NCBI GenBank assembly: GCA_018238155.1
Contig: JABCTZ010000037.1
Span: 1 to 64,000, forward strand
Length of the DNA: 64,000 nucleotides
Origin: Candidatus Heimdallarchaeota archaeon
GTDB taxonomy: Archaea > Asgardarchaeota > Heimdallarchaeia > JABLTI01
Reading direction: 5' to 3'
Shown here: positions 3,681 to 35,612 of the stretch, one piece after another
How the letters are laid out: the number at the start of each line of letters is the position of its first letter
How positions within the stretch are numbered: position 1 is the first letter of the stretch
The notes under the pieces: generated by a model
Told to the model about the DNA's origin: nothing
Databases searched by the model: none
The model's input: the letters and a program-made list of their open reading frames with translations, nothing else
Made by a program: the position numbers and the translations under genes

Positions 3681-4378
3681 TGTCAATAAAACAATCAAAA
3701 GAGATTAGAAAAATAATTCGGTGCACAGACTTAACTAAGGAATACCAATTTGGTTCTGAAGTAATCCATGCCCTACAAAAGATAAATCTAGAAATTATTG
3801 AAGGAGAATTTGTTGCAGTTATGGGGAAGAGTGGTAGTGGTAAAACCACATTAATAAATATACTAGCTGGGTTACTATCAGCTTCTTCTGGAGAAGTAGT
3901 CATTGATGAGCAATCTTTACTAAATATGTCCACTGATCAATTAAGCCTCTTGCGTAGAAAAACTATAGGAATAGTTTTTCAAATGTTCAATTTACATCCT
4001 GGGTTAACTGTACTAGAAAATGTAGAATTACCTCTATTATTTAATGACATCGATAAAGATAAACGAAGGGCTGCCGCTCAAGAAATATTGACTTTCTTGC
4101 AGCTTGAGGATTACATAGATAACTATCCTGATGAATTGAGTGGTGGAGAAAAACAAAGAGTAGCTATTGCTCGAGCTTTAATCAATGAACCAAAAATACT
4201 TCTTGCAGATGAACCAACTGGAAATCTAAATTCATTACTTGCCAAAGAAATTGTTACGCTTTTCAAAAAAATAAATAAAGAAAAAGGTTTAACAATCATT
4301 TTTGTTACCCATGATGAGTCCTTATTTGATGATGATATGCGTTTAGTAAAGCTCAAAGATGGTAGATTATTGAATTGA
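3680..4378 (+). CDS. ABC transporter ATP-binding protein (LolD-like)
   Basis: GKSGSGKTT, LSGGEKQRVAIARAL, LADEPTGNL, THD. Start overlaps the previous stop by 1 nt. Confidence 0.93.
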   Translation: MSIKQSKEIRKIIRCTDLTKEYQFGSEVIHALQKINLEIIEGEFVAVMGKSGSGKTTLINILAGLLSASSGEVVIDEQSLLNMSTDQLSLLRRKTIGIVFQMFNLHPGLTVLENVELPLLFNDIDKDKRRAAAQEILTFLQLEDYIDNYPDELSGGEKQRVAIARALINEPKILLADEPTGNLNSLLAKEIVTLFKKINKEKGLTIIFVTHDESLFDDDMRLVKLKDGRLLN

Positions 4379-4568
4379 AAGAGTCCTCTCAAATTAATAT
4401 CTGTATAACTAAATTTTGACTTAAAATGCTATTTCTTAAGAAAACTATATTAATTCTTTTCCTTTCGTAGAAAGTATTCCCATCTATAGTATAATTACAG
4501 CTATTCGAATCTTGCTATTTCAATCTTTGAAAGTATTTTTACTAAATGAACTTAGGTTTTGATTAATT

Positions 4569-5438
4569 ATGGCTAAGAAAAAGTTAGGAATAGTAGCAGA
4601 TTCAACATGTGATTTACATCCAGATTATATTAAAAAATATAATATTGGTATTGTCCCTTTGAAAATTATTTTTGATGATGAAGTTAGGTATCAAGGTCTT
4701 GATATTACTAATGATGAATATTATCAGCGATTGATTGCCGGTGAAATGCCTACAACGGGTGCACCTGCACCAAAATTCTTCAAAGAAGCAATTGATAAAG
4801 CATTGGAAGAATATGAACAAGTACTAGTTTTTTGTATCGGCAATAAACTTAGTGCAACATACTCCACAGCTGTTATGGTTAAAAAACAATTTTTCGATGA
4901 AAGAGTAACTATTATTGATACAAACACTTTGTCAGTTACGATCAGTTTAATTCTCTTACCTGTAGCAAGGATGGTAGCTGATGGTGCATCCAAAGAGAAA
5001 GTACTAACTTTCGTTAACAAGACAATTCCTCATACACAAGTATTTGGAGGAGCTGCAACATTGAAGTATCTCCATAAAGGAGGTCGTCTTAGTAGAGCCT
5101 CCTACATGATAGGATCTTTACTAAATTTTAAACCTTTAATTAGTGTAGATGATGGATTAATTGTTTCACCTGGAAAAGTTCGTGGAACGAATAATCTAAT
5201 GGAACACATGAAAACTGTAGCTAATAAAATCGCTGAAAATCGTTTGTCAGAGCTAGTAATTGTTGGTCATTGTGCTAATTTAGAGAAAGCAGAAGAAGCG
5301 GCTGAATATTTGAAAGGATTACCTAATGCACCCAAAGAAGTAATAGTGTGGGAAATTGGTCCGGTAATTGGAACACATTTAGGACCTGGTACCATAGGAA
5401 TTGTTTGGGTAGGCGAATTCAAAGAAGAATGGTTGTAA
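4569..5438 (+). CDS. DegV/FakB family fatty-acid-binding protein
   Basis: N-terminal 'IVADSTCDL', 'LSATYSTA', 'LKYLHKGGR', C-terminal 'IGTHLGPGTIG' are DegV hallmarks. Confidence 0.92.
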   Translation: MAKKKLGIVADSTCDLHPDYIKKYNIGIVPLKIIFDDEVRYQGLDITNDEYYQRLIAGEMPTTGAPAPKFFKEAIDKALEEYEQVLVFCIGNKLSATYSTAVMVKKQFFDERVTIIDTNTLSVTISLILLPVARMVADGASKEKVLTFVNKTIPHTQVFGGAATLKYLHKGGRLSRASYMIGSLLNFKPLISVDDGLIVSPGKVRGTNNLMEHMKTVANKIAENRLSELVIVGHCANLEKAEEAAEYLKGLPNAPKEVIVWEIGPVIGTHLGPGTIGIVWVGEFKEEWL

Positions 5439-5630: not shown

Positions 5631-7037
5631 TTGGTGAATAATTTGGTATTAGGAAAATTAGGTTCTTCAATAACTTCTGCTTTGAAGAAGATAGTTGGAG
5701 CTGGGACAGTTGATGCTACTCTTATTCGAGAATTAAAGAATGAGCTCTTAAAAGCTCTTCTCGAAGCTGATGTGAAGCTTGAAATTGCCTTAGAAGTCAC
5801 TGAGAAGGTAGAGAAAAAGGCACTCAAAGATGATCTTCCTCCGGGCATTCCCCGCCAAAAACATGTTGTATCTATTGTACATGATGAGCTTGTTCAGATT
5901 TTGGGTGGCAAGGGACAGAAATTAAAGATAACTCCCGGCAAACTTAACGTGTTACTTTTTGTTGGTATACAAGGTTCAGGCAAAACTACTGTCGTAGGAA
6001 AATTAGGCAATTGGTTAAACAAGCGTGGTATGAAGCCAGCTATGGTTTGTGCTGATACAGATCGACCAGGTGCTTACGAGCAACTAGTTCAACTCGGAGA
6101 ACAAATCAATGTTCCTGTCTATGGTGAGCCAAAAGAAAAAAATGCTGTTAAAATTGCTCGCGATGGTGTTACTCATTTCCAAAAATCAAAAGAAGTCATT
6201 TTAGTTGACACTGCAGGTCGTCATAAAGAAGAGAAAGCCATGTTAAAAGAAATGGCTAAAATTGCCAAAATGGTTAAACCCGATGAAATAATTCTCGTAA
6301 TTGATGGAACATTAGGTCAACAAGCATTTGATCAAGCACTTGCCTTTGCCACAACAACTAAAATTGGAAGTATAATAGTTACAAAACTTGATGGTTCAGC
6401 AAAAGGTGGAGGAGCTCTAAGTGCTTGCGCAGCAACAAAAGCACCAATAAAATATCTAGGTGTTGGAGAAAAAGTTGGTGATTTAGAACGGTTTGATGCT
6501 ACTGGTTTTGTTGGTAGGTTACTCAATATGGGTGATATTGAAGCTTTAATTGAAAGTGTTCAAGCTGCTGAAATTGAACCAGATGAAGAAATGGCTAAAG
6601 CATTCCTCACAGGCAAATTTACCTTACGAGATATGTATGCCCAAATGCAAAATATTGGCAAAATGGGTTCTATGTCCAAAATTCTCTCTTTCCTTCCAGG
6701 TTTCTCTACAGGATTACCAGATGGACTTGAAGATACTTCAGAAGAAAATATGAAAAAATTCATGTGCATGATGGAATCTATGACAGCAGAAGAACTCGAT
6801 GATCCTTCTGTTATTAGAAGCACTAGAATTCAACGTATTGCTCGTGGCTCTGGAACTGACCCAAAAGATATCAAACAACTAATGAAGCAATTCAATCAAA
6901 TGAAAAAAATGATGAAGGGTATGAAGAAAGGAATGGGACGAAGAGGAGGCAAAATGCCAAATATGACAGATTTAGCAGGGATGCAGGGTGTTACTGGTAA
7001 ACCTTCTACAAAAATCACTAGAGGTAAGAAAAGATAG
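5631..7037 (+). CDS. srp54: Signal recognition particle protein SRP54
   Basis: GIQGSGKTT, DTAGRH, TKLDGSAKGGGALS, Met-rich M domain with 'RIARGSG'. Confidence 0.97.
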   Translation: MVNNLVLGKLGSSITSALKKIVGAGTVDATLIRELKNELLKALLEADVKLEIALEVTEKVEKKALKDDLPPGIPRQKHVVSIVHDELVQILGGKGQKLKITPGKLNVLLFVGIQGSGKTTVVGKLGNWLNKRGMKPAMVCADTDRPGAYEQLVQLGEQINVPVYGEPKEKNAVKIARDGVTHFQKSKEVILVDTAGRHKEEKAMLKEMAKIAKMVKPDEIILVIDGTLGQQAFDQALAFATTTKIGSIIVTKLDGSAKGGGALSACAATKAPIKYLGVGEKVGDLERFDATGFVGRLLNMGDIEALIESVQAAEIEPDEEMAKAFLTGKFTLRDMYAQMQNIGKMGSMSKILSFLPGFSTGLPDGLEDTSEENMKKFMCMMESMTAEELDDPSVIRSTRIQRIARGSGTDPKDIKQLMKQFNQMKKMMKGMKKGMGRRGGKMPNMTDLAGMQGVTGKPSTKITRGKKR

Positions 7038-7093
7038 GTCATCTATCTACCTCTTACATTTTCTATTGAAAGAAGTTTTTTGGAGGGAAAGAA

Positions 7094-7765
7094 TTGTATA
7101 GGATTTTTCTAATCAAAATTCAGAAGTTTAAGTATGAGAAAAGAGATCTTAATCTTCCCTTCTCACAAAAACGTATCATTATTGGTTTTTTATCTCGAAT
7201 GGTTACAAATGCTATTTTTCTTTCCCATTCTTTGAGAAAGAAAGTAATTGTTAGATTAGCAATTGAAGAACCAGTTCCTCATATAATTCAAATTCAAACT
7301 GATAAAATAAGATATCTTGGACCTGATGAAAGAAGTTTCGCCTCAATAATCCTAAAAGCAGAAAGAAAAATAATAGAACAAAAAATTAATTCACCTAATG
7401 ATCACTGGTTTCAACCCAATCCTGGATTATTTGCAAAAATAACTGATGATTGGTTAATTGATTTGGACCTCTATTTAAATGAGCCAATTGGATTTATTCA
7501 ATTCAATTATAATTCCACAAATGGAGAGAACATAGTTCAAGAAACAATTGATTTTTCATTTAGAGGTTTTGAAGAAAAAATAAACTCTTTTTGTGAAAAG
7601 TTCAATTCAAATATATTTGTTTTTAATTTAACAAAAGGAGCAATAGATTGGTGTGAACCTCCACTACCATTAAACACTGTCCCACATCACATACAGATAC
7701 CAAAAATAGTAAATCCGCCAAAAATAGTAGGATTAATAAATATTATACTGGATGAAATAAAATAG
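7094..7765 (+). CDS. TrmY-like SPOUT protein (tRNA pseudouridine54 N1-methyltransferase family), divergent
   Basis: 'AIFLSHSLRK' and 'IRYLGPDERS' match TrmY N-terminal motifs, and it follows srp54. C-terminal half is atypical. Start uncertain. Confidence 0.6.
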   Translation: MYRIFLIKIQKFKYEKRDLNLPFSQKRIIIGFLSRMVTNAIFLSHSLRKKVIVRLAIEEPVPHIIQIQTDKIRYLGPDERSFASIILKAERKIIEQKINSPNDHWFQPNPGLFAKITDDWLIDLDLYLNEPIGFIQFNYNSTNGENIVQETIDFSFRGFEEKINSFCEKFNSNIFVFNLTKGAIDWCEPPLPLNTVPHHIQIPKIVNPPKIVGLINIILDEIK

Positions 7766-7775
7766 AAACCAAATA

Positions 7776-8462
7776 TCATGGTTTCCTAGAGAATAAACGA
7801 TATTTTTCCTCAGGATTGGTTAACTCGCGCATTATTCGTGCAATAATTAATTTCTTTGGATCAGAAACTTTTGTTCTTGAAGCAATGTCCTCAAAAGAGG
7901 TGAAATTCACTCTATTTCGTTCAGCTATCAAATTCTCAAGATGGGTCGTACCGATACCTGGAAGCAATTTGAATGCATGCATTCTTGAGGTCACAAGTGA
8001 AGCTTTGTTGAACCAATTAACAAATCGAAATTCTTGTTTTGTAACGATTTCCATTAAACAATCATCAAGAATCTTTTCAGAAGAGTTAGCTAAATCATTA
8101 TATCCAATTCTTCGTTTAATTCGAGTAATTAATTTGCGATTGTCCTTTCCAATTCCAATTCTATAAAGAGGTTTGATATGTACTCCTCTCTTTGGACTTA
8201 ACTCCAACAGAGTAAACCAGATCTCACCTATCGCTTGAACAACGGGTTCTCGACTATTGAATGGATTTGGATCTGTTGGGCTGCCTTCTGATAAATAAGC
8301 TAGTGCCCAAGCAAATTCTTCATATTTTCTTTGTCGGTCACCAGTAGCATCCTGTCTACTTTGAGCTGGATTGTTACTTGATCTATTGCGATTGTTGCTG
8401 TAAGAGCGATTTTGGTTTTGATTTGTTCTTTCGGGCATCATAACCCACCATTTATTATTCAT
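7776..8462 (-). CDS. DUF655 family predicted RNA-binding protein
   Basis: 'QAIGEIWFTLLEL', HhH motif 'LLPGIG', 'YRLF' ending. Conserved position after rpl21e-rpoF. Confidence 0.9.
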   Translation of the reverse strand: MNNKWWVMMPERTNQNQNRSYSNNRNRSSNNPAQSRQDATGDRQRKYEEFAWALAYLSEGSPTDPNPFNSREPVVQAIGEIWFTLLELSPKRGVHIKPLYRIGIGKDNRKLITRIKRRIGYNDLANSSEKILDDCLMEIVTKQEFRFVNWFNKASLVTSRMHAFKLLPGIGTTHLENLIAERNRVNFTSFEDIASRTKVSDPKKLIIARIMRELTNPEEKYRLFSRKP

Positions 8463-14952: not shown

Positions 14953-15438
14953 TTAGAAGTTCGCTAAAATGTCTTCAACTCTTGAAGCAAAATCCTTCAT
15001 TAAACGATATCTCAATGTAGATCTGCTAGTTTCTTCTTTAATCATTATTACAATCGAATTATTGCTCTCGGATCTAAAAACTAGAAAAAAGCCTTCTTTT
15101 CCTTCCAACATAACTCCAATCGGATCCCCAATATCATAATGATTTGTTGTCATTTTTATCAGTGATAAAAATTCTCTCACATATGAACTTGTAAACTCAG
15201 TATCAACATCTTGAGAAGACCATTTTAGCACAAGAAGTCCAGAAGATTCAATAACGATAACAGATCTGACTCCAGGATTTAATGCATGTAAAACATTGCA
15301 TTCTTTTTCAAATCGTACATCAACTGATAGGCTCAAATTATATTCCTCACGTATAATTAGTTTTTTTGAAACGTTTTTTCGTTTCATTAAAAAAACACTA
15401 GTTTTCTTAATGAATGTTATGTATATTACTTTTTCCAT
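14953..15438 (-). CDS. Roadblock/longin (profilin-like fold) domain protein
   Basis: Pattern 'GVRSVIVIESSGLLV' - helix - 'GDPIGVMLEGKEGFFLVF' - strand - C-terminal helix is typical of Roadblock/LC7 proteins. True start is probably downstream. Confidence 0.65.
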   Translation of the reverse strand: MEKVIYITFIKKTSVFLMKRKNVSKKLIIREEYNLSLSVDVRFEKECNVLHALNPGVRSVIVIESSGLLVLKWSSQDVDTEFTSSYVREFLSLIKMTTNHYDIGDPIGVMLEGKEGFFLVFRSESNNSIVIMIKEETSRSTLRYRLMKDFASRVEDILANF

Positions 15439-20116: not shown

Positions 20117-20590
20117 TTATCCAAGCGCTTCCCATGTTGCATATTTTTCCACATAAAGTTTAGCTTTTCGTTCGAATTCTTTAACACTATTTTTGAACTC
20201 TTTTGCTGCGGTAGTGTTTAACGGATCGTCTGGATTGGGATTGGATAATAAAAATCGTAATGATTCCACAATATCAACTAAATTACTTGCTGGGGTCCAA
20301 TCCTTTCCTAAAATACCTACACAAATTCTATCTTTGAAAATATTTGGATGCCAGATAGGAGTTAAAACTTTCACTTTTGGTGGTTTAAAAGGAAATGACC
20401 TTGGTATATGTATTTCAAATTGGAATACACCGCCAGAATATAAACCGGTTCCAATCATGAACCCTCTCCAAACTCTAGTGTTTCCATTTAAAGGAGTGAA
20501 GTTTGGTTCCTCTTTCTTCATTTCCCCCGATTCAATAGCTAATCTTGCCCAAAAGTCGTCCTCACTGAGTTCCATTTGATTTTTCCTCAT
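20117..20590 (-). CDS. Ubiquitin-conjugating enzyme E2 (UBC family)
   Basis: 'YSGGVFQFEIHIPRSFPFKPPKV', HPN motif and catalytic Cys in 'WHPNIFKDRICVGILGKDWTPA', 'PNPDDPLN'. Confidence 0.95.
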   Translation of the reverse strand: MRKNQMELSEDDFWARLAIESGEMKKEEPNFTPLNGNTRVWRGFMIGTGLYSGGVFQFEIHIPRSFPFKPPKVKVLTPIWHPNIFKDRICVGILGKDWTPASNLVDIVESLRFLLSNPNPDDPLNTTAAKEFKNSVKEFERKAKLYVEKYATWEALG

Positions 20591-23463: not shown

Positions 23464-26400
23464 TTACTTTACAACTGTTATGGTTGGAGTTTGAACTACT
23501 CCAATATGAGTATCATTAATTATACCTACTGTATCTACTATCCTACAATAAAATGAAACCGTACGTTGTGTATAGGACCTGAATAATCCCTTTCTCATTG
23601 AAGGAGGTTTCCACTCGAAAGATTCCAAAACAAAATTCTCTTCTTTTTTCACTCTAGTTTTTAATCGATATCTCTTAATTAACTTGACTTTAGCGTTCTT
23701 AGTAAATTGCAAGATATGTATTTCTCTAATGTCACTATGTGCTTTGAATTGTAATTTTGGAGTTATTTCAGTAACATAGTTACTACGAATTCTTGATTTA
23801 AGTGGTGGATTTCCAAGCAAACTAAAATTAATTAGCTTAGATAAAGGAGGTGAGACTTTGAGTGAGGCAGATGTACTAGCTCCTCTGCCATTAAAGACAC
23901 AAAGTAAATGCCATTTGGATGAACACATACTAAGGGGTATTACCACAGGCATATCAATTGTGAGACTTTTTCTTGAGAACCGAGATTTCTTTTCATATAA
24001 TTTAATTATCCCTCTTTGTGAGAGACCCCACAATGTCAATTTACCTCGAGTATTGCTTTTCGAGATAGATGCCTTGACTTTAACAAAAATCTCTCCAACA
24101 GGATTTGGAGATGTTGTTAGATTTGTTATGGAATGGGTTTTATTTTTTGGTACTTTGACCTTTGTACATGATTTATGGGCAGTGGCTAGGATTTTTCTAC
24201 TCTTTCCATCTCGAACAATAAATCTTAGCTTGAAATCACCATGATAATTATTGAGTTGAATTGGAATTGGAAGGTAACAAAAATCAACCAATGATGCTTT
24301 TTCCAAATTAATAGACTCTTGAAAAGCTTTTCGTCTTGCACCTGATCCCTTAGTCAGAGGAACAAATTCTGCTTCTATTTTAACTGGATGTGAAATTTTG
24401 GATTGGAGTATTGATCGGCGCCATTTTATCTTTATAACCGGAACAATTAGTGAATAATCAACTTTAGATGGAAAGTTATGTATTGAAACATTTTTGACAA
24501 ATTTAGATTCTTTGAAGAATTCTTCTCGTTGGAATGTTGGTGTAGCAGCGACTATTTTTGTAGAACCTCTAGCTGTTCGATTTGAAGTTTTAGATGTGCG
24601 TTTCTTCTTAGAAGCATTTGTTTTTGTGCTTCTTGAAATTCGAGGTTTTGGTAACACTGCACCTTGAGTACGATATCTTGAACTTGACGCTGTAGATGCA
24701 TAAGCCTGCACTTTTCTTTTCGAAGATTTTTGCAAAGATTTTGATCTAGAAGATGATTTCCTTTTGTATCCCTTTGTTTTAATAGGAGCTTTTTTTCTAG
24801 CTAGCTTCTTAGGTTTTGAAGATGAGCGTTTCTTCTTTGGAGTTTTCTTTTTGGCTTCTTTCACTTTTCTTTTCTTTGGTGGTGACCTAGTTCGTGCTGG
24901 AAGCTTCTTTTTTGATTTGACGGGTCTAATAGTTGCTACAGGTTTTGATTTCATAGAAGGAGTAGAAGGTCGTCTAATAGGTCGAGCAGCTAAAGGTTTT
25001 GATGGACGTCCAGTAATGGGTTTTGGTGGTGGTTTTTTAGCTTTTTCAAGAAGCTTTAATCTCTCGAGACGTTTTTTCTCTAACACTTTTTCTCTTTTTA
25101 TTTTCTCGCGTTGTATTTTAGCTGATTGTATTTGTTTCACTTTAAGTCGTTGACGTTCCTTTGACATTACTTTTTTACGCCTTGTCCTAGAATCAGATTG
25201 AAGTTTGCGAGCAATTGCACTTCGTGAATTATCTGCAGTTCTAACAGGTTTTGCAGCTTTTGTTTCAACGAATTCAGTTAATGATTTATCAGGAAGACCT
25301 AACATCTCGCTAAAAACTCTTCTAGGTTTACCATTCATTAAACTCAAACTTTTGATAAGATTTGTAATGTTATTGTGATTTTGTTCATATAAATAAAACA
25401 TAAATGTAGCTGCAGAAATAGGAGGAGCTATTCGAGCTGTCCCCCACAACATAATAAGAAGTGGAGCAAGTTCACTTTCACTCATTTGTAGTTCAGTTAG
25501 CTCTGGTTTTAACCAGATAAGTAAGGCACGCAAAGATTCATAGATTTTCCCAGGAGGTCCTCCTGTTTCTGGGTTGTGATTATAATATTTAGCGAAAAGC
25601 CCGCCAGATGATTCGATACCAGGGTCTCCTTGGAATTTTGCGAACATACCAAAGTTTACTGCTCTTTTGCGATGTTCAAAAATGGTATTTCCCTTTATTT
25701 CAGGAATTGGTGTACCAGCCCTAACCATCTTAGCACCTTTCAATGCTAATGCTTGTAGTAATAAAATGATTGAAATTCGAATGCTTTGATCATATTGTGC
25801 ATCAAAGAATCGACATTCAATAGTTCCATAGACTGTATATGGGTAAACATCTACGTACCTGTCATCAGGAATTTCTTTTCGAACATGCCTCGAGAATTGT
25901 GTCTGGGTATTAGATGATTCAACGTGCGGTAAATAATCGGGCATATTCGGTCCCAATTGCCCGGAATTTTCTTTTAACCTAAAACTTCGAATACTATCAG
26001 GAGCTAAAACCAAAGTTCGTCCATCATCACCCTTCTTAAGAATAATACGTCCAGCAGGTTTCCCATTTACAAACGGAGAAGTATTAGATAAAGCTATAAG
26101 ATGTGGTATATATGCTCTAATCATGTTATAAGCAGCACTTTTTTCTGCCTTGTTTTTAAATCCACCAAGATGATGATGTTCTCCGCAAGTTACTCCAGCA
26201 CGATATTCTGATTGATAAGGATTAAATCCCAAAGCTTGAATATTATATCCTTTTGTAATTGATTGAGAAGCAGCTAAATAGAGAGTGTTTATCCACCAAT
26301 CCATTTCTTCAATATACTCACAGGGAGGTGTCACTAATTCTAATAACCAAGTAATTTGTGATATATTTGGATCAGGACCAAATACATTGATTGCAATAGA

Positions 26401-26724
26401 TTTACCGTTGAGCTCATACTCTATTTGAACATAGCGAATCATTTTACCATGTCTTTCTACATCCTTTCTAGAGACACGCTTGATTTTTTTCCGAATATAG
26501 TCAGGGACATTTTTAGTGCTACTTGTTAAAGATTTTATGAAACTTAATGCCCCATTAAACATCTGATCCCAGACTGCAACTAGTTCTTTTCCATCCTCCA
26601 GAATTTCTCCGCGTTTATCAGTAATGAAATTTTCAACCTCTAAACCATGAGTAAAAGGCAACTTACGTAAGGTACTAGTAGCAGAATTTGCTGAATCTGA
26701 TTTTGTTTTACTGTTTTTACTCAT
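23464..26724 (-). CDS. GCS2/YbdK-like carboxylate-amine ligase domain fused to a Lys/Arg-rich linker and basic beta-rich C-terminal domains
   Basis: 'THGLEVE', 'LELVTPPC', 'TCGEHHHLG', 'LIALSNTSPF', 'YGTIECRFFDAQ' match the GCS2 catalytic pattern. Residues ~490-730 are low-complexity and basic. Confidence 0.8.
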   Translation of the reverse strand: MSKNSKTKSDSANSATSTLRKLPFTHGLEVENFITDKRGEILEDGKELVAVWDQMFNGALSFIKSLTSSTKNVPDYIRKKIKRVSRKDVERHGKMIRYVQIEYELNGKSIAINVFGPDPNISQITWLLELVTPPCEYIEEMDWWINTLYLAASQSITKGYNIQALGFNPYQSEYRAGVTCGEHHHLGGFKNKAEKSAAYNMIRAYIPHLIALSNTSPFVNGKPAGRIILKKGDDGRTLVLAPDSIRSFRLKENSGQLGPNMPDYLPHVESSNTQTQFSRHVRKEIPDDRYVDVYPYTVYGTIECRFFDAQYDQSIRISIILLLQALALKGAKMVRAGTPIPEIKGNTIFEHRKRAVNFGMFAKFQGDPGIESSGGLFAKYYNHNPETGGPPGKIYESLRALLIWLKPELTELQMSESELAPLLIMLWGTARIAPPISAATFMFYLYEQNHNNITNLIKSLSLMNGKPRRVFSEMLGLPDKSLTEFVETKAAKPVRTADNSRSAIARKLQSDSRTRRKKVMSKERQRLKVKQIQSAKIQREKIKREKVLEKKRLERLKLLEKAKKPPPKPITGRPSKPLAARPIRRPSTPSMKSKPVATIRPVKSKKKLPARTRSPPKKRKVKEAKKKTPKKKRSSSKPKKLARKKAPIKTKGYKRKSSSRSKSLQKSSKRKVQAYASTASSSRYRTQGAVLPKPRISRSTKTNASKKKRTSKTSNRTARGSTKIVAATPTFQREEFFKESKFVKNVSIHNFPSKVDYSLIVPVIKIKWRRSILQSKISHPVKIEAEFVPLTKGSGARRKAFQESINLEKASLVDFCYLPIPIQLNNYHGDFKLRFIVRDGKSRKILATAHKSCTKVKVPKNKTHSITNLTTSPNPVGEIFVKVKASISKSNTRGKLTLWGLSQRGIIKLYEKKSRFSRKSLTIDMPVVIPLSMCSSKWHLLCVFNGRGASTSASLKVSPPLSKLINFSLLGNPPLKSRIRSNYVTEITPKLQFKAHSDIREIHILQFTKNAKVKLIKRYRLKTRVKKEENFVLESFEWKPPSMRKGLFRSYTQRTVSFYCRIVDTVGIINDTHIGVVQTPTITVVK

Positions 26725-26766: not shown

Positions 26767-28200
26767 TCATTTTGGTTTTTGATGTAAAAGATAATCAAAC
26801 AAATATTGTTGAGTAAAAGGATAACTCTCTTCTTGTTCTTCTAGAATCTGTGTTATCTTAGATGCAAAATCCATGAGTGTTGTAACTTCAGAGATATTTA
26901 ATTTTCCGCCTTTAAGTTGCTGAATCACAAAACTTCGACGAATATCAATAATATCTGCAAATATGTTAAGAATGTACAGCTCTTCATAGACGTTATTTCC
27001 AGAAGGATCAAACAATGCATCCGTATTAAAATAAACACCAGAAATTGAACATAATTGAGCAATAATATCAGAAAGTCTTGCTTGAGTTTTAACTCTCAGT
27101 ATTTTATCAAAATCTTTTCTTGTAACTTTTGATTTTTCAATACCAACGCGGTTAATCACTTTTTGGGGCCAATAAATTTTCAGCATACGCAGAGCATTTA
27201 GTCCTAGAACATATCTTATATGATTAAAGGTTACTCCTAGTTCTTTTGCTTTTTCTGAAAAAATGAAAGTAAGATGATCACTTGCTTGTGGTACACTAAA
27301 ATAATTATGATCAGTACCATACATTGCAGATAAATGCCAATCCTCTACGAGATCGATACAATTTTTATAGAAAATTTCACAATCATCGCCTCTCATCCCT
27401 GATGTTTCAGTTTTGATATTTGAATCACCAAGAATTTCATACATACCTTTAGTTGTATAGTCAAAACCAAAATGCCCGAGTATTATTGTAAAATCGTCAT
27501 TCTTTGCTCGTTTTCTAACTTCCATTGTTACTTGATGTATCTCTTGAGCTGTTTGATAATTTTGAACATCAAAAATAACTGGCAATTTATAATCAACTGC
27601 AGTACGAACAATTTCAAAAATATTTTCACTGACAATATCATTTATCCAGTTCTCAGAAAGAGGGTGGAGTTTTAATCCTCTTGCACCATATTCAACACAT
27701 CTGAGGATTTCATCAATTGCTTTTTCCTTGTCATTTGGATCTACTCGACAAAAGGGAACTAACCTAGAACCATACTCAAGTGTTTGTGCACGAGTGATAA
27801 TATAATTATTCGAACGGATAAAATGAGGGGATGTCTTTGCATGGAGAGTATCATGCAATGGAAAAGTAACTATTTTATCTGCAAACCAACCAATATTCTG
27901 CGTAGTTCTCGTATCTCGAAAGATGTCTTGCTGTAATTTTGTTGCAGGCATCGTGAAATCATTAGCTTTTTCTGGCAAACTAAATGCATAATCCTCGGGA
28001 TAGCTTGTGATTCTTCTATGAACATCGAATTTTAATTTCTCATAGAAGTCTATATGATCCTTCGGTCTAACAATTCTATAATCTTTACCTTTTCCACTTA
28101 CGACTGATTCTTTACCCAAATGTGTGTGAGTATCCACTACATTTAGTTTTAGCGGTCTTTTCTTAGGATCATCTTTATCATATATAATTATCATTAGCAT
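26767..28200 (-). CDS. Metal-dependent amidohydrolase (amidohydro_2-like TIM barrel) with a C-terminal extension
   Basis: 'VVDTHTHLG', 'GARGLKLHP', 'ILGHFG', 'YGTDH', 'LGLNALRML'. Confidence 0.85.
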   Translation of the reverse strand: MLMIIIYDKDDPKKRPLKLNVVDTHTHLGKESVVSGKGKDYRIVRPKDHIDFYEKLKFDVHRRITSYPEDYAFSLPEKANDFTMPATKLQQDIFRDTRTTQNIGWFADKIVTFPLHDTLHAKTSPHFIRSNNYIITRAQTLEYGSRLVPFCRVDPNDKEKAIDEILRCVEYGARGLKLHPLSENWINDIVSENIFEIVRTAVDYKLPVIFDVQNYQTAQEIHQVTMEVRKRAKNDDFTIILGHFGFDYTTKGMYEILGDSNIKTETSGMRGDDCEIFYKNCIDLVEDWHLSAMYGTDHNYFSVPQASDHLTFIFSEKAKELGVTFNHIRYVLGLNALRMLKIYWPQKVINRVGIEKSKVTRKDFDKILRVKTQARLSDIIAQLCSISGVYFNTDALFDPSGNNVYEELYILNIFADIIDIRRSFVIQQLKGGKLNISEVTTLMDFASKITQILEEQEESYPFTQQYLFDYLLHQKPK

Positions 28201-31955: not shown

Positions 31956-33080
31956 CTACTGCTCATTTTCTAAATCATCATCTTCCAAACGCTTTCGTTC
32001 AGCGTTTAATCTATCAAGGAAACTAAATCTACTAGATTCTTTTTTCTTTGGTGGAGGTGATTCAACGACTACTTGTTGTTCAACGGGAGGTTGTGAAATA
32101 ATAGGGCGTTCAACAGGAGGTTGTGGAATAATGGGACGTTCAACGGGAGGTTGTGGAATAACAGGTTGTTCCATTATTGGAGGAGTAATTGTGCTTATGG
32201 GTTGAGTTGCTGTTTTCTCAGGTTCTGTAGGAGGTTCAATAACAGGTTGTTCATTTAAATCGGCAGCAGTTGGAGCTAATGATATTGGTTCAGTAAAGGA
32301 AGGTTTAGCAGACTCTTTTTGCTCAACTACACCTACAATGGGAGGAGTTACTATACTTGCCTGAGGTACTATTGGAGCTGTTTGATTTATTGGCAGAATT
32401 GTATTTGCCATAATATTATCTACCGTTGGAGCTTCAATTGAAGGTACTCTTCCAATACCCAAAGGTTGAGCAGACAAGTGTTGAGAACCAGAAATTGTAT
32501 GAACTTCAGGTTGCTGTGGATGAGTAGTATCTACCATTTCAGTAGAAGGCATCGTCATTCCTTTCTTATCTAAAATCATCAACTTACTAATTGCTTCGAA
32601 TGTTTCTGTAATGCCAATCCCTTTCAGGCTTGTTGTAGGGATGTAAAAAGAGATATTGAGTCTTTTTGCGGTTTCTAAACCTTCTTCATTCAGTACTTCA
32701 CGAAGCTCTTCAACATCATTCTTTGTACTAACAAGAACCTTTGGGATATTGATATCCTCTAATTTGTTTATCCATCGATCAAGAGAATCGAGAGTATCTC
32801 TTCGTGTAGTATCATAACAAAGGATGGCACCATGTGCACCTTTTGTGAAGATATTACTTATTTCGGCAAATTGATCTTGACCACCAATATCACAAATCTG
32901 TAACGTTACTTCTTCTCCATCAACAACTAGTTTTTTGCTAAAGAAATCAGCACCAATAGATAATTTGTAGCTTCCAAAGAATTCACCGGTAGTTAGGTAA
33001 TTACAAATAGATGTTTTACCAATTCCACCATCACCAAGGACTACAACTTTGAAGAAGGTCGCCACTAAATATGTCTCCAT
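31956..33080 (-). CDS. Rab-like small GTPase with a long Pro-rich C-terminal tail
   Basis: G1 GDGGIGKT, 'SIGADF', G3 DIGGQ, G4 TKND, then a ~200-aa P/Q/E-rich tail. Confidence 0.92.
   Translation of the reverse strand: METYLVATFFKVVVLGDGGIGKTSICNYLTTGEFFGSYKLSIGADFFSKKLVVDGEEVTLQICDIGGQDQFAEISNIFTKGAHGAILCYDTTRRDTLDSLDRWINKLEDINIPKVLVSTKNDVEELREVLNEEGLETAKRLNISFYIPTTSLKGIGITETFEAISKLMILDKKGMTMPSTEMVDTTHPQQPEVHTISGSQHLSAQPLGIGRVPSIEAPTVDNIMANTILPINQTAPIVPQASIVTPPIVGVVEQKESAKPSFTEPISLAPTAADLNEQPVIEPPTEPEKTATQPISTITPPIMEQPVIPQPPVERPIIPQPPVERPIISQPPVEQQVVVESPPPKKKESSRFSFLDRLNAERKRLEDDDLENEQ
32081..32170. repeat. 30-bp tandem repeat x3 encoding E(R/Q)P(I/V)I(P/S)QPP(V/M) units
   Basis: caacgggaggttgtgaaataatagggcgtt / caacaggaggttgtggaataatgggacgtt / caacgggaggttgtggaataacaggttgtt. 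Confidence 0.9.
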
Positions 33081-33452: not shown

Positions 33453-33989
33453 ATGGATAAGTGTTATTCAATGAAACTCTCAAAAATTATTAAAAACAGG
33501 AAGGCAATGACCCCCTTAATGATTGGATTGATTGTCGCTGCATCAGTAGTAGCTGTTTTCTTTGTTATAATGGCTGCAGTAGTTCCTTCCATGAGTCAAA
33601 ACATAAACATGCAAATTAGAGAGGAACTCATTATTGGAAATTCCACTAGCGATCATTTTTCCTTGGATTTTGACATAATGTGCGATTATGAAGCAGGTGA
33701 AGTTTGGAGAGCAGAAATATATAAAAATAGTTCAACTCAAAATGCCTTTACACTTTATGGTTATACAAGTTTAACTGATGAAGTTTCCTTTAAGAGAAAT
33801 GAGGAAAGAACAATTAAAGTATTATACTTTACAGCTGAAGCAGGTGTAGATCCAACTGAAGTTGATGGTGTTCGATTAATTTTCCAAGTTGGGGATGAGT
33901 ATGTTCTAAGAGTATACTATAGACCTCTTGATAAACCAGAAGAAACAAGCTTATTTACAGAAGCAACATTTGAATTTAAAACAAAATGA
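33453..33989 (+). CDS. Type IV pilin/archaellin-like protein (class III signal peptide)
   Basis: 'KNRKA|MTPLMIGLIVAASVVAVFFVIM' is a PibD-type cleavage site plus hydrophobic helix, followed by a beta-rich domain. Confidence 0.7.
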   Translation: MDKCYSMKLSKIIKNRKAMTPLMIGLIVAASVVAVFFVIMAAVVPSMSQNINMQIREELIIGNSTSDHFSLDFDIMCDYEAGEVWRAEIYKNSSTQNAFTLYGYTSLTDEVSFKRNEERTIKVLYFTAEAGVDPTEVDGVRLIFQVGDEYVLRVYYRPLDKPEETSLFTEATFEFKTK

Positions 33990-34148: not shown

Positions 34149-35612
34149 ATGGTTGAGAAAATAATTGACATTTCAGTAATGAATGTCGGTGAAATTGATG
34201 GGCGCGCTTATATGAATAAGCGTGATATGGAAAGAATTGGTGTCGATGATTTTGATATCATTCAGCTAATTAATGAATTTGAAGACAGCTGTGCAGTACA
34301 AGTTCTTGAAAATGACGAAGTGGAAGCAGATACTGTTGCAGTAGATAACGGAATTCTCGATTCCGCGAACATTAGCGATGGCGATAGGGTGAAAGTAAGA
34401 AAAGCCCAAATAAAAGATGAAGCAATAACTAGAGTGAAGTTTGGTATTGAACCTCTTGAAGGTCAACCTGTTGAAGAATGTATAACATACATTTTAGAGA
34501 ATTTTGATGAATTAACATCAGTAATAAGAAATCGACCTGTATATCGTAATTTACAAATTGATTGGCCAGATGCTGGATGTGGACACGTCAAAATAACCTT
34601 TTTAGATGCAGATCCAGATATGGAAGGCGACGAAGTTGGTATCATTGATCCTTCAGGAAAAGAAGTAGAAGTTCAATTAGTACCTGCAAGTGAAATGTCC
34701 TTCAATGCAGTTTTGATTCTCGACGTATCAGGCTCAATGAGTAAAATTGATATGATTGTCAAAGGAACTGGAACGGCAGTTGAAGGGTTAAGAAGAGGTC
34801 TTAAAGGAAGTAAAGACTTAGACAAACTCTTAGATGAATTCGAAGAGAAGAAAGTATCTCGAATTAAAGGTGCTGCCTTAGCAACTCTATTGTTCCTTTC
34901 ACAAAAAGTTAGTCGTGGATGGGGTGAACAATTATCTATCCTCAGTTTTGCAGGGGATGTTGATGTTTTTGAAATTGAATATGGTTCTGGTGGACCCACG
35001 CCGGTCATAGCATGCACAGGTCAAGCAAAATCAGCTGGTCTAGAAATCATTGCTGATTATGTTTCCAAGAGATGTTCCAAAGGTGGTGGACTTACATTCA
35101 TGAGTGGTGCAATTCAACAAGCTTATGAAATGACAAAGCAATTCGAACCAAATTCAATAACTGGTAAGATGAATCCAGCAATGATTATTCTTCTAACTGA
35201 CGGTCAACCAAACAAAGGAAACGGTCTTGGAATAAACCCAGTTCCTGTTGCACGCAAATGTGCTCGAGATTATCCAAATACTATTCTCTATACCATTGGT
35301 CTTGGTGAAGCAGATAAAAGACTACTCAAGAAATTATCAGAAATTGGTAGAGGAGAATTTTATGAAGCAAATGATCTTGGTGAATTAACTAAATTCTACG
35401 ACCTCTTAGCAAGACGATTTATGATCGCCTTAAAAACTGAACCAACTGAACTTGTTGAACAAGTTCCAGAAGACTTCTTTGATACTGTTGCTGATGACGA
35501 AGAAAGCGATGAAGTCGAATTAGCTCTTGAAGAAGACTACGGTGGTGCAGGCGAAGATATAGAAGAATTCGAAGAAGAATTCGTAGAAGAAATCGAAGAA
35601 GAAGAAAATTAA
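34149..35612 (+). CDS. Cdc48/VAT N-domain-like + von Willebrand A domain protein with an acidic tail
   Basis: N-term 'GRAYMNKRDMERIGVDDFDII...DNGILDSANISDGDRVKVRKA' resembles the Cdc48 double-psi barrel. MIDAS 'DVSGS', 'GLT', 'LLTDG', 'YTIGLG'. Confidence 0.8.
   Translation: MVEKIIDISVMNVGEIDGRAYMNKRDMERIGVDDFDIIQLINEFEDSCAVQVLENDEVEADTVAVDNGILDSANISDGDRVKVRKAQIKDEAITRVKFGIEPLEGQPVEECITYILENFDELTSVIRNRPVYRNLQIDWPDAGCGHVKITFLDADPDMEGDEVGIIDPSGKEVEVQLVPASEMSFNAVLILDVSGSMSKIDMIVKGTGTAVEGLRRGLKGSKDLDKLLDEFEEKKVSRIKGAALATLLFLSQKVSRGWGEQLSILSFAGDVDVFEIEYGSGGPTPVIACTGQAKSAGLEIIADYVSKRCSKGGGLTFMSGAIQQAYEMTKQFEPNSITGKMNPAMIILLTDGQPNKGNGLGINPVPVARKCARDYPNTILYTIGLGEADKRLLKKLSEIGRGEFYEANDLGELTKFYDLLARRFMIALKTEPTELVEQVPEDFFDTVADDEESDEVELALEEDYGGAGEDIEEFEEEFVEEIEEEEN

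Follow-up and report, generated by a model that had tools for sequence, protein, structure and literature searches.

A Cdc48-type N-domain joined to a MIDAS vWA domain: a candidate docking subunit of a hydrolase–ligase module in Asgard archaea

The gene and the folds of its product

The window analysed here is a stretch of 64,000 nucleotides from Candidatus Heimdallarchaeota archaeon (contig JABCTZ010000037.1). An ATG-initiated open reading frame on its forward strand, confirmed exactly by the ORF list and the translation, encodes P0001, a protein of 487 residues that joins a Cdc48-type N-domain to a vWA domain. The features of this gene and the neighbouring genes discussed below are as follows.

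34149..35612, + strand: whole gene of the Cdc48N-like and MIDAS vWA protein P0001, 487 aa (ORF list and translation)
34149..34688, + strand: Cdc48/p97-type N-domain, residues ~1–180, with the predicted hydrolase docking surface (Pfam, model, VIA-align, co-fold)
34689..35453, + strand: vWA domain with intact MIDAS, residues ~181–435 (Pfam VWA, structure alignment, conserved columns)
35454..35609, + strand: disordered, lineage-specific Glu/Asp-rich C-terminal tail, residues ~436–487 (pLDDT, alignment A1)
26767..28200, − strand: Amidohydro_2 metal hydrolase of 477 aa, predicted to bind the N-domain directly (Pfam Amidohydro_2, neighbourhood, co-fold)
23464..26724, − strand: giant GCS2-like carboxylate-amine ligase P0202, 1086 aa (Pfam GCS2, translation)
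20117–20590, − strand: E2 (UQ_con, E = 7.7e-33)

The N-domain consists of a double-psi β-barrel lobe (residues ~1–90) and a second (Nc) lobe (residues ~95–180). Pfam matches CDC48_N (PF02359) to residues 17–87 with an E value of 2.2e-7 and a score of 31.4 bits, slightly under the 35.1-bit cut-off, and an AlphaFold model of residues 1–182 has a pLDDT of 90.7 and a pTM of 0.81. Alignment of this model with VIA-align gave a Z-score of 16.3 (r.m.s.d. of 2.8 Å over 163 aligned residues) for CDC48A-N (9uw1_A), 15.9 for PEX1-N, 15.4 for p97, 14.8 for NSF-N, 13.7 for VAT-N and 13.5 for UFD1. The alignments to CDC48A-N, PEX1-N, NSF-N, VAT-N and UFD1 cover the model from residue ~1 to 182 with 157–168 residues aligned, and the N-lobe superposes on DPBB structures with an r.m.s.d. 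of 1.4–1.8 Å over ~82 residues. Because the model matches both lobes of the known N-domains, a double-psi barrel followed by a second lobe can be assigned to P0001. This agrees with a preliminary description of the locus, which had likened residues ~1–180 to both Cdc48/VAT N-subdomains and had proposed comparing a predicted structure with p97-N and Ufd1.

Residues 181–435 match Pfam VWA (PF00092; E = 3.6e-9, above cut-off) and are structurally similar to classical MIDAS vWA domains (Z ~20–21, r.m.s.d. of 2.0–2.7 Å over 174–191 aligned residues), with Z-scores of ~19 for TFIIH p44 and 18.8 for Rpn10. The five MIDAS residues, D192, S194 and S196 of the DxSxS motif together with T316 and D351, show no variation in alignment A1, and the set DSSTD is present in 52/52 family members. 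A conserved, family-specific helical insert (residues ~198–238, motif EGLRRGL) lies immediately after DxSxS. From residue 433 onward the pLDDT is below 50, indicating that the C-terminal tail of ~50 residues is disordered; in A1 the acidic tail is restricted to relatives with ~82–96% identity (family f1 alone). The intact MIDAS and the Glu/Asp tail had both been pointed out in the preliminary description, and both are real, the tail as a property of the closest relatives.

Where Cdc48/p97 carries its D1/D2 AAA+ domains with Walker A/B motifs, the vWA domain is found instead. No Pfam or NCBIfam match to an AAA domain was obtained for the protein, and its match to TIGR01243 is confined to residues 20–91. 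The architecture originally proposed for this reading frame, a Cdc48 N-domain and a vWA domain with no ATPase, is thus upheld by the two-lobed N-domain, the five MIDAS residues and the lack of an AAA match. The N-domains of Cdc48, NSF and PEX1 are adaptor-binding modules. The analysis supports P0001 as a motor-less pairing of two protein-binding modules that acts as an adaptor. Its family comprises 76 representative clusters at E<=1e-10, and the 60 close homologs all come from Asgard MAGs.

Conserved partner genes and a predicted complex

The hydrolase has invariant metal ligands (HxH, H179, H243 and D297), and the ligase is built from a ligase domain (residues ~1–480), a basic disordered arm (~490–700) and a β-rich C-terminal part. 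The arm is strongly basic (20–25% K+R). A pairing of this arm with the acidic tail of P0001 was considered and rejected, as the arm is also present in family f4, where the P0001 homolog has no tail, and other lineages have neither. The three genes do not form one operon in the window, and in the genus from which it comes ~6–7 kb of unrelated genes lie between them.

Genomic neighbourhoods (~8–9 kb around the P0001 homolog) were surveyed at 50 loci from ~40 Asgard genomes. A hydrolase ortholog occurs at 34 of the 50 loci, mostly directly upstream of the P0001 homolog on the same strand with a gap of 4–260 nt, and the ligase lies within ~9 kb at 24 loci at least; in family f4 the hydrolase, the ligase and the vWA protein stand in one co-directional row. 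Two paralogous copies of P0001 (L018 and L022, ~28% identity) are accompanied by diverged hydrolase and ligase copies of their own. No module genes were found within 8–9 kb of four orthologs (L001, L002, L006 and L007) or of three paralogs (L017, L021 and L050, the last in the window's own genome); a search for conserved partners of these paralogs gave housekeeping genes only. A phyletic survey of ~300 Asgard genomes from 30 families places P0001, ligase and hydrolase homologs together in the same ten families in near-identical counts, with none of the three in the other 20 families; over half of the genomes sampled contain the three-gene module.

A conserved fusion of 870–900 residues (880 in one example) at loci of families f11 and f28 combines a hydrolase-like N-terminal half (profile E values of 1e-21 to 1e-40) with a Cdc48N-vWA-like C-terminal half (1e-11 to 2e-19), and the same pairing is seen by Pfam in P0157. 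The window holds all three members of an Asgard ligase–hydrolase–vWA module for which linkage, co-duplication and fusion are observed. Family f14 departs from the usual sizes, with a short ligase (~570 residues) and a long P0001 homolog (~720–760 residues). The idea that the N-terminal extension of the latter represents the missing C-terminal part of the ligase was rejected, with no similarity detected by phmmer at E<=10; the extensions consist of additional barrel-like units connected through a Pro-rich linker.

Co-folding of the hydrolase with P0001 gave ipSAE values of 0.80, 0.83 and 0.79, with 0.01 for the best of three controls; these values pass a mark that is attained by 58 of 80 solved complexes and two of 110 mismatched pairs, although the input used here (custom alignments plus an Mg ion) differs from the set-up in which that mark was calibrated. 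The runs have at least 56% of their contacts in common and the pLDDT of the partners is at least 76. We know of no similar complex, so that a pass through model memory is unlikely. The predicted interface lies wholly on the N-domain (residues 8–15, 43–46, 59–80, 101–105 and 134–148). Its residues are no more conserved than the rest of P0001 or of the hydrolase (permutation p of 0.72 and 0.96), which leaves the exact interface uncertain.

Proposed role and alternative explanations

We propose, with a probability of roughly 0.6, that P0001 is the non-catalytic docking subunit of an Asgard module made up of an Amidohydro_2 hydrolase, a GCS2-type ATP-dependent carboxylate-amine ligase and the Cdc48N-vWA protein. 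The N-domain is predicted by co-folding to hold the hydrolase. Since the MIDAS is complete and lies outside the predicted interface, the vWA domain would remain available to a third component that offers a carboxylate (Asp, Glu or a C-terminus). The ligase may write, and the hydrolase erase, an amide or isopeptide linkage whose carrier is probably a protein, and the vWA protein would bring the hydrolase to its substrate or tag. Reversible amide-bond modification, with P0001 docking the hydrolase and its MIDAS free for a carboxylate-bearing ligand, is the most likely explanation of the data. The three-gene module appears to be previously undescribed: a search within a limited literature collection found no description of either the Cdc48N-vWA architecture or the module. 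None of the PADLOC defence-system models matched P0001, the hydrolase or the ligase at E<=0.01.

The preliminary description had cast P0001 as an adaptor or substrate receptor for Cdc48 or the proteasome, plausibly tied to the ubiquitin system through the E2 encoded in the window. The adaptor part of this reading stands, with the hydrolase and the ligase as the conserved partners in place of Cdc48 and the proteasome. Cdc48 lies within 9 kb of a family member at one of the 50 loci (~5 kb away at L008), a short AAA protein is present at L017, no proteasome gene occurs in the annotated neighbourhoods and nothing that matches the window's E2 lies within 9 kb of a family member at the 50 loci; neither Cdc48, PAN and the proteasome nor the window's E2 can therefore be counted among the conserved neighbours. 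A link to ubiquitin does exist elsewhere in the family. Two orthologs from Sigynarchaeota, which nest within the orthologous clade of P0001 (support 1.0), end in a C-terminal ubiquitin-like domain (UBL). A Ub-E1-E2-JAB cassette lies next to these orthologs, and the UBL shares 46% identity (E = 2e-29) with the cassette's free modifier; this adjacency is found in two Sigynarchaeota genomes with differing gene order. The uncharacterized genes that flank the Sigynarchaeota locus gave no hydrolase or ligase profile match. The Sigynarchaeota ortholog has probably been wired instead to the canonical ubiquitin system by fusion to a copy of the local modifier and by its position beside the cassette. 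The arrangement is compatible with an adaptor that generally serves protein-tagging systems in recognition or recruitment.

These observations bear on three further readings of P0001. A cofactor of the Ufd1 or Rpn10 kind, delivering UBL-tagged substrates to Cdc48, PAN or the 20S proteasome, would account for the Ufd1-N/p97-N fold of the N-domain (Z of 13.5 to 16.3), the resemblance of the vWA domain to Rpn10, the UBL-fused orthologs beside Ub-E1-E2-JAB and the Cdc48 gene at L008. Cdc48N-type domains also bind UBX and ubiquitin folds. However, this reading is improbable given the neighbourhood results above, the 20 of 30 sampled Asgard families in which P0001 homologs were not found and the predicted occupation of the N-domain by the hydrolase. 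Classical MIDAS domains, moreover, match the vWA domain better than Rpn10. The Rpn10 Z-score is tied with those of many other vWA domains; Pfam gave no UIM match. Small molecules are the substrates of characterized GCS2 (YbdK-type) and Amidohydro_2 enzymes. The ligase and hydrolase might accordingly make and trim a γ-glutamyl-type or other amide metabolite or cofactor, with the vWA protein helping in assembly or delivering metal, which is what vWA subunits do in chelatases and CoxE-type maturation systems. Such a role in metabolism would suit the known chemistry of the two enzyme families, the intact catalytic residues of the hydrolase and the pathway-like inheritance of the trio as a unit. 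We nevertheless regard it as quite unlikely, as no AAA+/MoxR or chelatase partner and no further conserved pathway enzymes were found in the neighbourhoods examined, the long disordered arm and β-rich domain of the ligase are typical of macromolecule binding, an inactive fused scaffold copy exists and some orthologs carry a fused ubiquitin-like modifier.

To our knowledge, DEPDC5/Iml1, the large subunit of GATOR1/SEACIT, is the only eukaryotic protein in which a Cdc48/NSF-N-like domain is followed by a vWA-like domain, and P0001 might be an archaeal relative of its N-terminal half (NTD and SABA) that works with small GTPases. Whole-chain Foldseek searches match DEPDC5/Sea1 structures (9o5e_H, 8adl_W and 7t3a_A; E ~7e-10 over 431–520 columns), and VIA-align gives a Z-score of 12.4 for the N-domain against the DEPDC5 NTD. 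A Ras-family GTPase is a divergent neighbour of P0001 in the window and in its genus, and a Gtr1/RagA-like gene lies ~9 kb from one Sigynarchaeota ortholog. The domain order is also the same, the DEPDC5 NTD resembling the NSF/Sec18 N-domain and SABA resembling Sec23 according to a review (PMC8534245). Despite this support from both structural methods, we consider the relationship highly improbable. The N-domains of Cdc48, PEX1 and NSF match better (Z of 14.8–16.3 versus 12.4, r.m.s.d. 4.9), the whole-chain TM-scores of ~0.3 equal that for p97 N-D1, the vWA domain of P0001 is of the canonical MIDAS type, conservation of the GTPase neighbour stops at the genus and the conserved partners are enzymes rather than longin/roadblock proteins. 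P0001 ends after the vWA domain, without SHEN, DEP or CTD, so that the likeness is at the level of the fold only; a link at the sequence level was sought with Pfam (IML1 and DEP at E<=1), phmmer and a profile search against PDB sequences, and none was found.

A bolder form of the docking-subunit proposal, which we put forward tentatively and hold to be possible though rather unlikely, is that the trio constitutes a new Asgard protein-tagging system parallel to ubiquitin. The GCS2-like ligase would attach a carboxylate-bearing tag or protein tail in the manner of PafA, the Amidohydro_2 enzyme would remove it and the vWA protein would read the mark through its MIDAS and recruit the eraser, this reader having been captured by the ubiquitin system in Sigynarchaeota through modifier fusion. 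If so, different tagging systems in the archaea related to eukaryotes would have been able to exchange such adaptors.

No known group is more closely related to eukaryotes than the Asgard archaea, whose ubiquitin and Cdc48 toolkits are investigated as forerunners of protein quality control in eukaryotes. In P0001 a Cdc48-type adaptor-binding domain occurs as an independent module, set on a vWA scaffold, and is predicted to serve for holding an enzyme instead of supplying an unfoldase, and one lineage seems to have plugged the same protein into a ubiquitin system. With three soluble proteins, a predicted interface and a mutable metal site, the module provides a testable entry to a possible new protein modification, and it offers a way to trace the passage of recognition adaptors from one tagging system to another before the origin of eukaryotes.

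Relation to known systems

The carboxylate-amine ligase superfamily that includes the GCS2 enzymes also contains PafA and Dop. By analogy, the Asgard trio may follow the logic of the actinobacterial Pup system (PafA ligase, Dop deamidase/depupylase and Mpa ATPase), in which a ligase is likewise combined with an amide hydrolase. However, no Pup-like tag, AAA ATPase or proteasome linkage was found for the trio, and its hydrolase is a TIM-barrel Amidohydro_2 enzyme unrelated to that of the Pup system.

The N-domain has the two-lobed fold of ~160 residues that is common to Ufd1 and to the N-domains of Cdc48/p97/VAT, NSF/Sec18 and PEX1 and, like those of Cdc48, NSF and PEX1, is predicted to be a docking surface for a partner protein. 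All of these except Ufd1 precede AAA+ rings, whereas that of P0001 precedes a vWA domain without an ATPase, and its predicted ligand is a TIM-barrel hydrolase and not a UBX, SHP or SNAP-type adaptor. The vWA domain shares its canonical fold and MIDAS with a range of adaptors (BatA/BatB, ITIH, α2-delta and integrin I-domains, and the intracellular Rpn10 and TFIIH p44); P0001 differs from these MIDAS-type adaptors in being cytoplasmic, in being joined to a Cdc48N-like domain and in carrying the helical insert after DxSxS. The MIDAS domain of midasin/Rea1 binds UBL domains, a pairing that the UBL-fused orthologs of Sigynarchaeota recall.

Domain architecture and genomic setting

The Cdc48N-vWA protein is encoded by an intact open reading frame, with no long reading frame opposite it on the other strand, in a window of about 33% G+C that also encodes a Ras-family GTPase, a Roadblock/LC7 protein and a ubiquitin E2, all eukaryote-like signature proteins. 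The features considered here are as follows.

34149-35612, + strand: Cdc48N-vWA protein, intact, 487 aa
26767-28200, - strand: Amidohydro_2 hydrolase, about 6-7 kb upstream of the Cdc48N-vWA gene
23464-26724, - strand: GCS2-like giant ligase, likewise about 6-7 kb upstream
33453-33989, + strand: 178-aa ORF, directly upstream of the Cdc48N-vWA gene
31956-33080, - strand: Ras-family small GTPase (Pfam Ras, E = 2e-35), extended at its C-terminus by a long Pro-rich stretch
20117-20590, - strand: stand-alone ubiquitin E2 (UQ_con, E = 7.7e-33); its flanking genes encode inorganic pyrophosphatase and MetRS
14953-15438, - strand: Roadblock/LC7 domain protein (E = 4e-7)

The N-terminal hydrophobic segment (…RKAMTPLMIGLIVAAS…) of the 178-aa ORF is reminiscent of archaeal type IV pilin-like signals; Pfam gives no match for this ORF, and its conservation is limited to the genus (∼39% identity). 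The Ras-family GTPase gene is transcribed divergently to the region of the Cdc48N-vWA gene, an adjacency kept within the genus (loci L011 and L012) and lost beyond it.

The Pfam vWA match clears its cut-off (E = 3.6e-9), and the CDC48_N match at residues 17-87 falls just under the curated one (E = 2.2e-7); there is no AAA match, and the CDC48 model of NCBIfam covers the first 90 residues only. An AlphaFold model of the whole protein (pLDDT 76) has two ordered domains and a tail disordered from residue 433, while residues 1-182 modelled alone gave a confident structure (pLDDT 90.7, pTM 0.81). Exhaustive comparison of this N-domain model with 48,161 PDB representatives returned CDC48A-N as the top match (Z = 16.3, r.m.s.d. 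of 2.8 Å over 163 residues), other high matches being PEX1-N (Z = 15.9), p97 (15.4), NSF-N (14.8), Sec18-N (14.5), VAT-N (13.7) and UFD1 (13.5). All of these cover both lobes; single double-psi barrels align with approximately residues 4-88 only. Residues 181-435 align with classical MIDAS vWA domains (Z of ∼20-21), TFIIH p44 (Z of ∼19) and Rpn10 (Z = 18.8).

The MIDAS residues Asp192, Ser194, Ser196, Thr316 and Asp351 are invariant in a 36-sequence alignment, and 52 of 52 family members, drawn from every subfamily, carry all five. A helical insert (∼198-238) directly after the DxSxS motif, with invariant Asp201, Glu212, Gly213, Leu214, Gly217, Leu224 and Arg238, is a signature of the family; the acidic tail is found in the closest relatives only. 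The preliminary description had proposed a two-lobed Cdc48/VAT-type N-domain beginning with a double-psi barrel, a vWA domain with an intact MIDAS, an acidic C-terminal tail and no AAA ring, and its structural side is confirmed in every respect, the modelled N-terminus adopting the expected barrel. We regard the fold and the intact MIDAS site as shown or strongly supported.

Family distribution and a three-gene module

A word-indexed search gave 60 homologous proteins of identical architecture (44-96% identity), the closest from Heimdallarchaeota and other Asgard MAGs, which places the source organism in the Heimdall group of Asgard archaea. All but two are labelled Asgard; the exceptions (P0003 and P0027, 85-89% identity, with NCBI labels Zixibacteria and Bathyarchaeia) are probably from mis-binned Asgard contigs. 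An exhaustive search of 1.84 billion representatives yielded 76 clusters at E ≤ 1e-10, most aligning end to end; those with a named lineage are Sigyn-, Odin-, Thor-, Hel- and Promethearchaeota. Members occur in 172 of the 301 genomes sampled from the phylum (62 of 90 high-quality genomes), often as two to four paralogs per genome, and are confined to ten of the 30 families.

Several variants were observed. The window's own genome holds a second, diverged copy (G000:C41:219949-221127, loci L010/L050; ∼27% identity, one TAA within the match). Its neighbours are housekeeping genes (ELP3-like radical SAM, iPGM, ArgRS), and neither a hydrolase nor a ligase gene is close by. Long forms of ∼680-830 aa (L030-L036 and L046 in families f14, f27 and f29; proteins P0070, P0073 and P0087) add one or two barrel-like units and a Pro-rich linker of 100-150 aa N-terminal to the core; these lineages have a short ligase (∼470-590 aa) that lacks the arm and C-terminal part. 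P0154 (667 aa), with three tandem CDC48_N + CDC48_2 N-domains and no ATPase, again employs the Cdc48 N-domain without a motor.

The giant protein, which has a weak GCS2 match, and the Amidohydro_2 protein recur beside homologs on Freyr-, Jord-like and Promethearchaeota contigs. Screening ±9 kb around family members with the window's proteins (50 loci, ∼40 genomes) placed a hydrolase ortholog in 34 loci, usually directly upstream of the Cdc48N-vWA gene, co-directional with it and separated by 4-260 nt, and the ligase within ∼9 kb in at least 24. In family f4, hydrolase, ligase and Cdc48N-vWA gene follow one another in a single co-directional row. Two diverged paralogs (L018 and L022, ∼28% identity) each have a diverged hydrolase (∼28%) and ligase (∼34%) of their own alongside, indicating that the module was duplicated as a unit.

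Whole-genome searches (ligase domain, E ≤ 1e-20; hydrolase profile, E ≤ 1e-40) found all three proteins in exactly the same ten families, with near-identical genome counts (66, 62 and 65 of 76 genomes in f11; 61, 61 and 62 of 68 in f14), and none of them in the other 20. The pattern is clean at the family level; it is given without a statistic because related genomes are not independent. Membership of the Cdc48N-vWA protein in a three-gene module is likewise shown or strongly supported.

Predicted hydrolase partner and ubiquitin link

The hydrolase was co-folded with Mg and residues 1-435 of the Cdc48N-vWA protein. The three runs gave ipSAE values of 0.80, 0.83 and 0.79, compared with 0.01 for the best of three controls, and shared at least 56% of contacts, with partner pLDDT of at least 76; in the tool's calibration, 58 of 80 solved complexes attained that mark, as did 2 of 110 mismatched pairs. 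From this calibration the present runs depart in their own alignments and the metal ion. All confident contacts on the Cdc48N-vWA side lie in the Cdc48N-like domain, on both lobes (8-15, 43-46, 59-80, 101-105 and 134-148), leaving the vWA domain outside the predicted interface. The hydrolase would contribute residues 29-62, which start just past the HxH motif (His25, His27), 97-143, 351-355 and 387-390. Neither protein is more conserved at the predicted interface than elsewhere (p = 0.72 and 0.96), which leaves some doubt about the exact surface. The modelling supports, rather than demonstrates, binding of the hydrolase to the N-domain.

Fused homologs of two separately encoded proteins are classical evidence that the two work as one unit. 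A conserved gene of 870-900 aa, divergently oriented, adjoins the hydrolase-Cdc48N-vWA pair in f11 and f28 loci. Its N-terminal half matches the hydrolase profile (E of 1e-21 to 1e-40) and its C-terminal half the Cdc48N-vWA profile (E of 1e-11 to 2e-19), a match that takes in the N-domain and the greater part of the vWA domain; Pfam, independently of these profiles, finds Amidohydro_2 and CDC48_N in P0157, a protein of this type. The fused copy lacks the HxH/H/D metal ligands and every MIDAS residue, and has the look of the pair turned into an inactive scaffold. Backed by this natural fusion, the predicted complex of hydrolase and N-domain may be counted among the results shown or strongly supported.

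Two Sigynarchaeota members (565 and 570 aa) are extended by a linker and, at the C-terminus, a ubiquitin-family domain (Pfam E of 3e-5 and 9e-6) ending ...IPASTAG-T or ...IPASHAG-KHKPF. Each gene lies one gene from a cassette of ubiquitin, ThiF-type E1, UQ_con E2 and JAB; the cassette is on the upstream side in one of the two genomes and on the downstream side in the second. Between the fused domain and the locus's own free modifier, which ends ...IPASTAG-LI, identity is 46% (E = 2e-29). In the family tree the fused proteins nest in one orthologous clade with the window's protein and the module-linked copies (support 1.0). The connection of the family to ubiquitin-like tagging is therefore real. 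In one Sigyn locus (L051) the fused ortholog is preceded directly by a coiled-coil-rich 363-aa protein (3972-5063, +) and followed directly by a 375-aa membrane protein (6814-7941, -). The ortholog in the second genome has flanking genes that are comparable in length (352 and 343 aa); all of these may belong to that system.

The preliminary description had read the protein as an adaptor or substrate receptor for Cdc48 or the proteasome, plausibly tied to the ubiquitin system through the window's E2, and this interpretation is partly supported. The ubiquitin link stands through the Sigynarchaeota fusions; the window's E2, which has no adjacent E1, ubiquitin or JAB gene there, is not conserved as a neighbour in the 50 loci (±9 kb). 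Conserved linkage to Cdc48 is not borne out, a Cdc48 gene lying near a family member in one locus only.

Proposed role and comparison with known systems

The likeness to the NTD-SABA region of DEPDC5/Iml1 is real in fold and domain order, but AAA+ N-domains match better, and neither sequence nor context supports the likeness. NPRL2-like proteins have been described in Asgard archaea by Liu et al. (bioRxiv 10.1101/2020.10.19.343400), who report no Depdc5 homolog in the one passage naming it. A literature search found no paper describing the Cdc48N-vWA architecture or the three-gene module, and there was no PADLOC match. The Cdc48N-vWA protein is an adaptor of an unusual kind, and the Asgard module to which it belongs is undescribed.

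Within this module, the ligase would write, and the hydrolase erase, an amide bond, probably on a protein; the Cdc48N-vWA protein would bring the hydrolase to its target, its free MIDAS site binding a carboxylate on a third component. It is possible instead that the ligase and hydrolase act on small molecules. Known systems offer analogies rather than tests: the Pup-system enzymes PafA and Dop share a ligase superfamily with GCS2 enzymes, and the MIDAS domain of midasin binds UBL domains through a glutamate.
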